Of a DNA stretch of 64,000 nt, positions 31,852-32,347 are shown piece after piece. The notes under the pieces are model-generated. The model was not told the DNA's origin. It saw nothing but the letters and a program-made list of their open reading frames with translations, and made no database searches. The stretch is taken from sequence record PP925839.1; one strand, given 5' to 3'. The position numbers and the translations under genes were made by a program. This DNA comes from Escherichia phage PinkRuby. Within the stretch, counting starts at the first letter, position 1, and the number at the start of each line of letters is the position of its first letter.

Positions 31852-31888
31852 TTTTATTCTCCGAGATGTTTAATTGCGGTACAGGTAT

Positions 31889-31917
31889 ATAATATCATAT
31901 CCTGTACCAAAGTAAAC
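31889..31917 (-). promoter_or_regulatory. early promoter with embedded hairpin upstream of 30.7-position ORF
   Basis: Minus strand GTTTAC, 17 nt, TATTAT; -10 lies in loop of GGTACAGG/CCTGTACC stem. Confidence 0.6.
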
Positions 31918-31921
31918 TATT

Positions 31922-32290
31922 TTATGCAACTTTAATCCAATTATCTAAATTTAATTCACCTTTGGCTTTCATTTTTTCAATCAAAAGATCAGCGGTAATA
32001 CGACCATTTTGATACCATGTAACATCTTCAGAGTAACCAGTTTCTTTATCTTCATAAGTCTCACAACGAATTTTACCAATAATCAAAGTTTTCAATTCGT
32101 ATGTATCTCCAGTAAAAAAGTTAGTTAACATTATTTTCCAAGAGAAATCATCAGAAGGACCTTCAGGAGTCATGCAACCTACAAATTCAAATTGTTCTTT
32201 GTATAAGTGCCACTGAAGTTCTTTAGTTTCGATAGCTTTATAGCCGTCGTGGTCTTTACCTTTGATGTATGAGTTAAGATTGATTTTCAT
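31922..32290 (-). CDS. hypothetical protein (T4 30.8 position)
   Basis: 122-aa ORF with own early promoter/hairpin module and AAGGAG SD. Confidence 0.6.
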   Translation of the reverse strand: MKINLNSYIKGKDHDGYKAIETKELQWHLYKEQFEFVGCMTPEGPSDDFSWKIMLTNFFTGDTYELKTLIIGKIRCETYEDKETGYSEDVTWYQNGRITADLLIEKMKAKGELNLDNWIKVA

Positions 32291-32317
32291 TTTATTCTCC
32301 TTTGTTTGTGTAAGATA

Positions 32318-32347
32318 ATACTATCACAAAGGAGCCATACTGTAAAC
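32318..32347 (-). promoter_or_regulatory. early promoter with embedded hairpin upstream of 30.8-position ORF
   Basis: Minus strand GTTTAC, 18 nt, TAGTAT; arms CTCCTTTGTG/CACAAACAAAGGAG pair across the SD. Confidence 0.6.

Follow-up and report, generated by a model that had tools for sequence, protein, structure and literature searches.

What could a stem-loop be for when one of its strands lies in the spacer of a promoter and the other in the leader of the gene that this promoter serves? The question is raised by the intergenic regions preceding two small open reading frames (ORFs), 30.8 (31922-32290, minus strand) and 30.7 (31486-31851, minus strand), of Escherichia phage PinkRuby (PP925839.1), of which a stretch of 64,000 nucleotides, hereafter the window, was analysed. 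Both sites belong to the minus strand and to the part of the early region lying between gene 31/rIII and the DNA ligase gene. The window belongs to a Tequatrovirus, being 99.5% identical to Shigella phage A2 and around 95% identical to T4 over positions 31400-33000. T4 is the reference for phage gene regulation; the control of protein output from tandem small early ORFs behind very strong promoters is poorly understood.

An earlier note on this DNA had described early promoters whose -10 element is enclosed in a hairpin loop, with a downstream arm covering the Shine-Dalgarno (SD) sequence, so that RNA read through from upstream would fold and mask the ribosome-binding site and RNA started inside the loop would not. 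Besides 30.7 and 30.8, it placed this layout at 35776-35814, 47529-47564, and 51545-51574. The explanation that we favour, with a probability of roughly 0.6 for the whole of it, is that these are T4-type early cassettes in which the promoter spacer and the initial transcribed region encode an RNA helix, and that this helix comes in two geometries: one that masks the SD (here class B) and a hairpin that leaves the SD free (class A). The stems exist, exceed chance, are biased towards the sense strand, lack terminator tails, and covary, as detailed below.

Early-promoter cassettes of the window

Both strands were scanned for the T4 early promoter consensus followed by a downstream SD and a start codon, which resulted in nine cassettes, all on the minus strand: asiA (63051), rnh (51574), frd.3 (48273), frd.1 (47564), alc (39139), the cassette at 35814, 30.8, 30.7, and alt.-3 (23349). 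This T4-specific motif with its SD/ATG context was adopted because a generic sigma-70 scan, giving 32 promoter-like matches against 36.5 expected, had no discriminating power. All nine sites share the pattern GTTTAC-N17/18-TAnnnT with a TGn extended -10, 55-90% A+T in the upstream 20 nt, and an SD and ATG located 19-31 nt past the predicted +1. Early promoters are annotated at homologous places in other records, including X54536, Yersinia phage fPS-2, phage TuIa, and the T4 curator note on Pe133295. No match to Rfam 15 was obtained at the gathering score over the whole window.

The stability of the stems was evaluated against two nulls, namely dinucleotide shuffles of the folded spacer-to-ATG segment, expressed as z-scores, and 200 trials per site in which only the site's own spacer was shuffled. 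Significant stems straddling the -10 are present in six of the nine cassettes, with z-scores from -3.8 to -6.6; shuffled spacers as stable as the native one were found in 0/200 trials at five sites, in 2/200 at frd.1, and in 43% at rnh. Structure is also more pronounced in leaders with the early motif (median z -3.48) than in the remaining 80 of the window (median z -0.25; Mann-Whitney p=1.8e-4), a comparison in which the structured leaders known from genes 25 and 32 show up as positive controls. No significant straddling stem is seen at asiA (z +0.6), frd.3 (z -0.95), or rnh, whose early promoter (51537-51574, minus strand) carries a 6-bp, A/T-rich AGATTT/AAATCT repeat at chance level (z -0.56 for 51545-51574). 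The expectation that the stems would be more stable than shuffled controls is thus borne out at 30.7 (z -4.4), 30.8 (z -3.8), 35814 (z -6.2), and 47564 (z -3.9), and fails at 51545-51574.

Predicted masking of the Shine-Dalgarno sequence by the promoter spacer

Masking was evaluated by folding the SD in a long read-through RNA and in a short RNA starting at the cassette's own promoter. Of the sites first proposed, the only one with predicted masking is the 30.8 cassette (class B; 32288-32347, minus strand), which comprises the -35 element GTTTAC (32347-32342), an 18-nt spacer, the -10 element TAGTAT (32323-32318), a predicted +1 at about 32311, the SD AAGGAG (32302-32297), and the ATG (32290-32288). 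The -35 and -10 of this promoter are annotated as an early promoter in X54536, and a TGn extended -10 precedes the -10 here as well as at 30.7; the sequences and coordinates initially given for both sites proved exact on the minus strand. The 5' arm of the helix, CTCCTTTGT (32326-32334, minus strand), is an anti-SD located in the spacer of P30.8, upstream of the transcription start site (TSS), and the 3' arm, ACAAAGGAG (32297-32305, minus strand), is the SD of 30.8 itself, as had been noticed before. This SD has a probability of being unpaired of 0.00 in the read-through RNA, which rises to 0.63 in the RNA started at its own promoter, with minimum free energies (MFE) of -14.6 and 0.0 kcal/mol, respectively, and none of the 200 spacer shuffles reaches the observed energy. 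At 30.8, and likewise at the class B cassettes alc and alt.-3, these outcomes are unchanged when the TSS is moved by +/-3 nt or when 200 nt of upstream context are added, the helix of 30.8 keeping a probability of 0.88 in the latter case.

Two further cassettes share this geometry and, even though they are the best SD-masking layouts of the window, were missing from the earlier list. The alc cassette (class B; 39079-39139, minus strand) has its -35 at 39139-39134, the 5' arm at 39133-39116, the -10 at 39115-39110, a 3' arm at 39099-39083 that contains the SD GAGG (39090-39087), and the ATG at 39081. Its stem (z -6.6) reaches -23.9 kcal/mol on the sense strand and -14.6 on the antisense strand, and its SD is unpaired with a probability of 0.00 in read-through RNA and 0.72 in the promoter's own transcript (MFE -23.9 and -4.8 kcal/mol, respectively). 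The preceding gene, rnlA, is associated with a MotA-box-type motif, and its stop codon lies 3 nt before the -35 of alc. The alt.-3 cassette (class B; 23286-23349, minus strand) is a paralogue of the former, with its -35 at 23349-23344, the 5' arm at 23341-23326, the -10 at 23325-23320, a 3' arm at 23309-23294 containing the SD (23300-23297), and the ATG at 23288 (z -4.6; MFE -20.8 kcal/mol in the long RNA and -2.2 in the short one). It is preceded by the alt gene, which has a late promoter and whose stop codon overlaps the -35 of alt.-3. The two cassettes are located 15.8 kb apart and, in the segment running from the -35 to the end of the SD, differ only around the -10. Two copies of this alc-type cassette, all at least 95% identical, are carried by some 500 Tequatrovirus genomes, and outside Tequatrovirus the alc cassette is not alignable.

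In these three class B cassettes, nearly all of the spacer is base-paired to the leader, up to and including the SD; the helix has a probability of 0.88-0.96 with 200 nt of additional context, and the SD is unpaired with a probability of 0.00 in read-through RNA. Coverage of the SD by the downstream arm is therefore seen at only one of the five sites for which it was claimed, 30.8, and is not supported at 30.7, 35814, 47564, and 51574. The same holds when the leaders are folded in both transcript contexts, as had been suggested: the SD is masked and then opened at 30.8, it is free at the class A sites, where the hairpin is clear of it, and likewise at 51574, whose stem is at chance level.

As a separate observation, 30.7, 30.8, and frd.1 (31859-31862, 32297-32302, and 47516-47521) share one translation initiation region, GGAGAATAAA(A)ATG, which is also seen in many relatives. 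GGAG is the cleavage motif of RegB and, in class B read-through RNA, would be buried in the helix.

Early cassettes of T4

The T4 reference genome was assembled and yielded 31 strict early cassettes. The same comparison of long and short folds recovers the proven T4 cases of masking, with the SD of e going from 0.00 to 0.69 unpaired, the AUG of soc from 0.00 to 0.52, and the SDs of 49 and I-TevI being at 0.00 in the long RNA. The early cassettes of T4 have a mean MFE of -12.9 kcal/mol, which a swap of spacers among them changes to -8.1+/-0.4; 14 of the cassettes are at or below -14 kcal/mol, compared with 2.6+/-1.1 after the swap (maximum of 6 in 200 permutations). The SD is masked in 12/31, against 3.9+/-1.4 (maximum of 8) when the cassettes' own spacers are shuffled, around 12% of the shuffled spacers masking an SD by chance. 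The complete behaviour, masked in the long RNA and open in the short one, is displayed by 11 of the 31 cassettes and by 12 of 168 leaders that have no early promoter (odds ratio 7.2, Fisher p=9e-5). The T4 class B set encompasses regB (0.00 to 0.93), motB.2, nrdC.8, denV, alc, 30.8, modB, e.8, imm.1, and an ORF of the ndd region, and the class A set includes dmd, mobD.2, ipI, ipII, and 30.7. With about one third of early cassettes masking the SD, about one fifth forming a compact hairpin that leaves it free, and the rest doing neither, the initial description of the layout as systematic across small early ORFs was overstated.

Conservation and covariation

Scans of IMG/VR with single proteins (30.7, 30.8, alc, and the 175-aa ORF described below) returned only near-identical relatives with almost invariant arms, and the comparison was moved to diverged GenBank genomes and a two-sequence RegB profile. 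In RB69 (Mosigvirus), the SD-masking helix of regB, motB.2, and denV is kept with different arms, that is, through compensatory changes; the arms of regB, for instance, are CUUGACUG/CAGUUAAG in T4 and CUAGUUG/CAACUAG in RB69.

The regB set consisted of 39 IMG/VR loci with RegB identities of 53-99%, representing 33 distinct upstream regions, 31 of them with a promoter. In 24 of these 31, the SD is fully masked and then open in the promoter's own transcript. Covariation was determined on an alignment anchored by sequence and comprising 20 distinct arm pairs, where the counts are conservative because the fixed register is off by one in a few lineages. Changes on both sides were found in 10 of 13 pairs (reached by 1/500 shuffles), with 37 double-change cells compared with 17.5+/-3.2, and a covariation score of 0.341 compared with 0.176 for shuffled arms and 0.08-0.19 for slid registers. 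In an alignment-free swap, the 5' arm folds with its own leader at -14.7 kcal/mol and with foreign leaders at -9.7 kcal/mol (P<1e-4). The 30.8 cassette behaves similarly, since at least four different 5' arms (CTCCTTTG, CCAGTG, TCTCC, and TCTTTAG) are found over ten lineages, and the swap test on these ten gives P=1e-4, with six spacers pairing best with their own leader.

Hairpins that leave the Shine-Dalgarno sequence free

The class A cassettes of the window (30.7, 35814, and frd.1) form a compact hairpin centred on the -10, which is partly loop and partly inner 3' stem. The 3' arm ends at +2 to +5, stopping 14, 8, and 4 nt before the SD at 30.7, 35814, and 47564, respectively, and the SD is free in read-through RNA (0.84-0.96 unpaired; 0.70-0.96 when rnh is included). 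In folds with long context, the class A SD pairs with far-upstream coding sequence (going from 0.84 to 0.01 at 30.7); this was rejected as masking, because the partners shift with the window chosen for folding and lie in translated RNA.

The 30.7 cassette (31849-31917, minus strand) consists of the -35 GTTTAC (31917-31912), a spacer of 17 nt, the -10 TATTAT (31894-31889), a predicted +1 at about 31882, the SD GGAG (31862-31859), and the ATG (31851-31849). A predicted early promoter is annotated at the homologous spot in fPS-2, and the -35, -10, and ribosome-binding site are annotated in the TuIa record. The 5' arm of the hairpin (31896-31909, minus strand; core GGTACAGG at 31908-31901) is within the promoter spacer, and the 3' arm (31877-31891, minus strand; core CCTGTACC at 31885-31878) reaches to about +5, leaving 14 nt between it and the SD. 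The stem has an MFE of -16.1 kcal/mol and is equalled by none of 200 spacer shuffles, no U-tract follows it, and the SD is unpaired with a probability of 0.84 in read-through RNA. Its arms are invariant across Tequatro-, Gapriver-, and Mosigvirus while both flanks vary; in Serratia phage 92A1, the geometry of the stem is kept with unrelated arms.

The 35814 cassette (35752-35814, minus strand) is the homologue of T4 Pe133295, an early promoter named in the T4 curator note. Its elements are a -35 at 35814-35809, a 5' arm at 35803-35792, a -10 at 35790-35785, a 3' arm at 35787-35776, an SD at 35767-35764, and an ATG at 35754. The stem includes three G.U pairs, folds at -16.3 kcal/mol on the sense strand vs -9.1 on the antisense strand, and is matched by 0/200 spacer shuffles. 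The frd.1 cassette (47507-47564, minus strand) has its -35 at 47564-47559, the 5' arm at 47557-47544, and the -10 (47540-47535) inside the 3' arm (47540-47526), followed by the SD at 47521-47516 and the ATG at 47509; its stem folds at -15.9 kcal/mol on the sense strand vs -11.2 on the antisense strand. The proposal that the layout of 30.8 and 30.7 recurs at the three remaining sites is hence right for the hairpin at the first two, where the SD is free, while the third is not distinguishable from chance.

RNA or DNA, and the question of termination

The sense fold beats the antisense fold in 14 of 16 structured T4 cassettes (mean difference of 5.2 kcal/mol, p=8e-5) and in 15 of 19 structured RB69 cassettes (p=0.002). 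G.U pairs represent 11-13% of the pairs in these cassettes, and the gaps between both strands reach 9 kcal/mol in the window. This sense-strand bias, together with the G.U pairs, points to selection acting on the transcript rather than on duplex DNA.

The straddling stems do not look like intrinsic terminators. No U-tract follows the stem in any of the 35 structured T4 and RB69 cassettes (at most three T in 8 nt), and none of the straddling stems of the window is terminator-like by the criterion of a hairpin plus U-tract; judged by sequence, they would not be intrinsic terminators, with weak attenuation being possible. Genuine terminators are separate elements. One of them (32376-32397, minus strand), formed by AAGGACTCC, a TTCG loop, and GGAGTCCTT followed by a T-run, lies after 30.9 and directly upstream of P30.8, and is conserved in all relatives examined. 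The other, with a GGGGACC...GGTCCCC T7 hairpin, is upstream of the frd.3 promoter.

Hairpins without a U-tract are also found where there is no promoter. In Klebsiella, Yersinia, and Citrobacter phages, the junction between 30.8 and 30.7 has no promoter and a GC-rich UUCG or UACG tetraloop hairpin lacking a U-tract stands directly before the SD, so the conserved object seems to be an intercistronic RNA hairpin. Among the promoter-less same-strand gaps of the window, 8/16 have a hairpin of -8 kcal/mol or lower, six of those eight without a U-tract. An example is GGGGC-UUCG-GCCCC (31461-31476, minus strand), located between 30.7 and 30.6 directly before the SD of 30.6. Others on the minus strand, all GC-rich and with tetraloops, are GGGCC-GCAA-GGCCC (40731-40757) and GGGGCU-AUCA-AGCCCU (47927-47969), directly before the next SD or start codon. 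By analogy, class A is most likely an intercistronic hairpin of this same kind, for which the candidate roles would be those of a barrier to 3' exonucleases, a stabiliser of the mRNA segment, or a decoupler.

Proposed mechanism and alternative explanations

The cassettes occupy intercistronic gaps of 55-70 nt in arrays of co-oriented early genes. The spacer and the initial transcribed region would be the two stretches of a promoter that are free of constraint, and would encode the two strands of the helix. Since the 5' strand lies within the -35/-10 spacer, any TSS downstream of the -10 (promoter activity and TSS being predicted here) excludes it, and the helix would form only in read-through RNA, never in the promoter's own transcript. 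A polymerase arriving from upstream would transcribe the spacer and then the leader, allowing the helix to form and bury the SD; a polymerase starting at the cassette's own promoter would begin inside the loop or the 3' strand and produce an open RNA. Sources of read-through would be the rnlA transcript for alc, late alt transcripts for alt.-3, and escape past the 30.9 terminator for 30.8. Class B read-through RNA would then be translationally silent for its ORF, tying protein output to the ORF's own early promoter, insulating it both from the early promoters in tandem upstream and from subsequent middle and late read-through, and ending it when early promoters are shut off. In class A, the hairpin would act at the RNA level as a barrier, stabiliser, or decoupler, being interleaved with the promoter, and having the -10 in or near its loop, because a gap of 55-70 nt offers no other room. 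The cassettes are, in addition, dispersed repeats at which genes are exchanged.

Cassettes of this type have been described in T4-type phages as promoter-early stem-loops (PeSLs), whose stems were interpreted as terminators or attenuators that isolate the cassettes transcriptionally, the cassette itself serving as a homology patch for gene shuffling (PMC2839356; PMC4122927). Under such an interpretation, the pairing of the SD would be incidental. The near-identity of the alc and alt.-3 cassettes, the 97% identity of the frd.3 cassette to the T4 motA region, the gene swap or indel at every significant site of the earlier note, and the chimeric cassettes of two relatives all agree with it, and the recombination role is probably also true, being compatible with an RNA helix. 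What it does not accommodate is the lack of U-tracts in the 35 T4 and RB69 cassettes and in the window stems, with the true terminators standing apart and upstream of the promoter, the sense-strand bias with its G.U pairs, and the covariation of SD-masking helices across genera, which would be unexpected for a linker or for incidental pairing. Terminator function and incidental pairing are thus disfavoured, and as a full account of the stems we consider this explanation unlikely. Coupling to upstream translation would also require an SD-closing helix, which would stay shut until melted by the ribosome finishing the upstream ORF, making the output proportional to upstream translation. Hairpin-mediated translational coupling is well established in RNA phages and operons, and the upstream stop codons at alc and alt.-3 are indeed close by. 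However, the 5' arm starts 8-10 nt past the stop codon at these two cassettes and about 65 nt past it at 30.8, distances that, judging from the ribosome footprint, are at or beyond the reach of the helicase of a terminating ribosome, and the 6-nt -35 likewise precedes the start of the arm in T4 regB, motB.2, and others. Coupling appears improbable to us as the general explanation.

The inverted repeats might also act in the DNA, as a duplex or cruciform exposing a single-stranded -10, binding a dimeric regulator, or being a target of endonuclease VII or of recombination. Class A repeats nearly centred on the -10, the invariance of the 30.7 arms over three genera, the DNA-binding protein speculated on by Arbiol 2010 (PMC2839356), and the reported inversion of the Pe133295 loop noted in the T4 record would be in line with this. 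The arms, however, differ completely between cassettes, leaving no common recognition sequence; sense folds are better by 3-9 kcal/mol, since G.U pairs become A.C mismatches on the other strand; the 20-35 nt loops of class B are implausible for cruciforms; and other genera carry promoter-less, RNA-type tetraloop hairpins at the same junction. An element acting in the DNA is, in our opinion, highly improbable. Finally, chance complementarity in AT-rich, low-complexity intergenic DNA does account for rnh 51545-51574, asiA, and frd.3, and shuffled spacers do mask an SD at the rate given above, but it is refuted at 6/9 window cassettes by the shuffle, swap, and covariation controls, and is hardly credible for the stems as a group.

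Several points weigh against the RNA-helix explanation. All the evidence is computational, the TSS being assumed at about 7 nt after the -10, and a literature search for T4 TSS, Term-seq, or structure-probing data found none. Class B accounts for only three of the nine window cassettes and about one third of those of T4, and the role of class A is deduced by analogy only. The SD of alt.-3, at 0.00 unpaired in read-through RNA, is also at 0.02 in its own transcript and is predicted to be closed either way. When spacers are swapped between T4 cassettes, the masking null is high (7.3 of 31, P=0.015); it is inflated because anti-SD motifs are common in spacers generally, and cleaner nulls are provided by shuffling each cassette's own spacer and by the leaders that lack a promoter. 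Masking is absent from alc, alt.-3, and nrdC.8 in RB69, and is therefore gained and lost in a lineage-specific manner, and the invariance of the 30.7 arms means that this site provides no covariation evidence. At 30.8, the strong terminator preceding the promoter limits the read-through that would need masking, and at alc and alt.-3, ribosomes ending the upstream ORF stop 8-10 nt before the 5' arm and might partly open the helix.

With the RNA helix as the preferred explanation, a broader proposal can be advanced, if only tentatively: that about one third of T4-type early promoters hold an anti-SD strand in their own spacer, making up a genome-wide code of translational insulation that would confine RegB, Alc, MotB.2, DenV, ModB, 30.8, and alt.-3 to their own early mRNAs, that is, to the first minutes of infection, and that has been kept by compensatory evolution across several genera of the Straboviridae. 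If this were the case, the expression of a third of the early genes would be decoupled from their polycistronic position and would be shut off automatically with the silencing of early promoters; several class B genes encode potentially toxic host-takeover proteins (the RNase RegB, Alc, ModB, and DenV). PeSL-type cassettes would gain a third function, translational insulation, besides promoter activity and recombination, and a horizontally acquired ORF could be safely expressed wherever the cassette lands. For phage annotation and engineering, the spacer of an early promoter would have to be treated as a functional RNA sequence.

Gene exchange and neighbouring genes

The body of ORF 30.8 (31934-32272) is a diverged allele, 39% identical to T4 gp30.8 at the amino acid level, and is flanked by cassettes that are 93-96% identical to T4 at the nucleotide level, with breakpoints at 31933/32273; from the sequence, it is a clean modular swap. 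Chimeric 30.8/30.7 cassettes are present in L022 and L023. The adjacent ORF at 32401-32619 (minus strand) matches T4 30.9 and encodes 72 aa, 100% identical over T4 130367-130582; judging from this alignment, the start of T4 30.9, which is annotated at 130364-130540 and is shorter than the homologue in the window, may be mis-annotated.

At the 35814 cassette, the homology to T4 ends at 35761, just past the SD. The 175-aa ORF that follows (MSEWFEEDKVYRF...; 35227-35754, minus strand) has no T4 counterpart and constitutes a 528-nt insertion relative to T4, which begins at 35760, 7 nt before the ATG at 35754, has its breakpoints at 35232/35761, and is placed between the Pe133295-type cassette and the cd.2 homologue. 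In the T4 record AF158101, a curator note states that a 14-nt segment at 133300-133313 (homologous to window 35776-35803) had earlier been reported as its inverted complement. This segment is the loop of the hairpin straddling the -10, and the report may reflect either an artefact of sequencing or a loop that, flanked by an inverted repeat, was really inverted. The ORF downstream of the 47564 cassette is frd.1, with an indel relative to T4 at 47514-47523. Between this cassette and frd.1, T4 contains at 146018-146090 a hydrophobic mini-ORF of 22 codons (MFAPYIMAAVMLVCLYLLIKAC), which is unannotated in AF158101 and absent from PinkRuby. The frd.3 cassette (48235-48307) shares 97% identity with the T4 motA promoter region (T4 163635-163707) and 77-89% with four other T4 promoter regions, and by these matches is assigned to a dispersed repeat family.

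Other differences from T4 are found further away from the cassettes. Two full-length paralogues of alt, encoding ADP-ribosyltransferases, stand in tandem at 23349-25406 and 25410-27503 (minus strand). The 697-aa Alt copy is 71% identical to T4 Alt, and the 685-aa copy 41%; residues 55-116 of the latter are 98% identical to the DNA of T4 alt.-1/alt.-2, which therefore look like remnants of a paralogue that is intact here. Both nrdB (40758-41936) and td (44810-45670) are contiguous ORFs in the window, and in T4 both carry introns with I-TevIII and I-TevI, respectively; no group I intron was detected by Rfam in the 64 kb. The genes segG and mobE appear to be absent from the window, and a 240-nt gap without a called gene (44570-44809) separates an nrdA.1-like ORF from td.

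Comparison with known systems

PeSLs, which went unrecognised in the earlier note, are cassettes of T4-type phages that join an early promoter to a stem-loop and an SD/ATG; they are scattered as repeats among small, non-essential early ORFs and themselves flank insertions, deletions, and gene replacements (Arbiol 2010, PMC2839356; Comeau 2014, PMC4122927). In RB49 and phi1, which are distant from RB69, the positions of their stems include "between -35 and -10" and "overlapping the -10" (PMC2839356; PMC4122927), and in T4 and PST the stems were placed upstream of the promoter (Comeau 2014, PMC4122927). A "PeSL-like" early promoter with an AT-rich stem-loop was also described at the IP loci of T-even phages (Repoila 1994, as cited in PMC2839356). 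These stems were read as terminators or attenuators and as recombination linkers, and the two PeSL papers contain no mention of translation (PMC2839356; PMC4122927).

Another trait of PeSLs is the formation of mini-circles through recombination between flanking cassettes. The window cassettes resemble PeSLs in being intergenic composites, where an early promoter with AT-rich upstream sequence is combined with a stem-loop and an SD/ATG. They also behave as dispersed repeats, with the 30.8, frd.1, and frd.3 cassettes matching several other T4 promoter regions at 76-97% and the RB69 family counting at least nine copies, and every significant site of the initial list adjoins a gene swap or an indel relative to T4. 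They differ in that stems upstream of the promoter exist here only at 30.8 and frd.3, where they are true terminators, whereas the stems studied straddle the -10, have no U-tracts, and, in a third of the cases, pair and covary with the SD.

A second group of relatives is formed by the T4 genes e, soc, 49, and I-TevI, where a hairpin occludes the ribosome-binding site in long transcripts and is relieved by an internal late promoter (Uzan & Miller 2010, PMC3014915). As in class B, the SD or AUG is buried in RNA initiated upstream, and a TSS located between the 5' strand and the SD gives an open mRNA; the fold signature of e (SD from 0.00 to 0.69) matches those of 30.8, alc, and regB. However, the internal promoter of those genes is late and the masked RNAs are early or middle, so that translation is delayed, whereas here the internal promoter is early, the masked RNAs would come from upstream early, middle, or late promoters, and the promoter itself supplies the 5' strand in the form of its -35/-10 spacer. 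TATAAATA is absent from the class B and class A leaders of the window, whose internal promoters are of the early type. The insulation code, in its tentative form, would be the temporal mirror image of these late-promoter hairpins.

Class A has its likely functional relatives elsewhere, in the stable C(UUCG)G-type tetraloop hairpins that Tuerk et al. reportedly described in 1988 in the intercistronic regions of T4. Both are short, very stable, and located in the intercistronic gaps of early mRNAs, some of them without terminator tails, as in the window cases at 31461-31476 and 40731-40757. In contrast, class A hairpins are richer in AT, their 3-6 nt loops consist of -10 sequence instead of UUCG or GNRA, and they are interleaved with a promoter. 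As for class B, even though an older description of SD masking at early promoters may exist, it is probably a variant of both previous systems: a PeSL cassette in which the stem masks the SD, and a promoter-in-hairpin switch with an early internal promoter.

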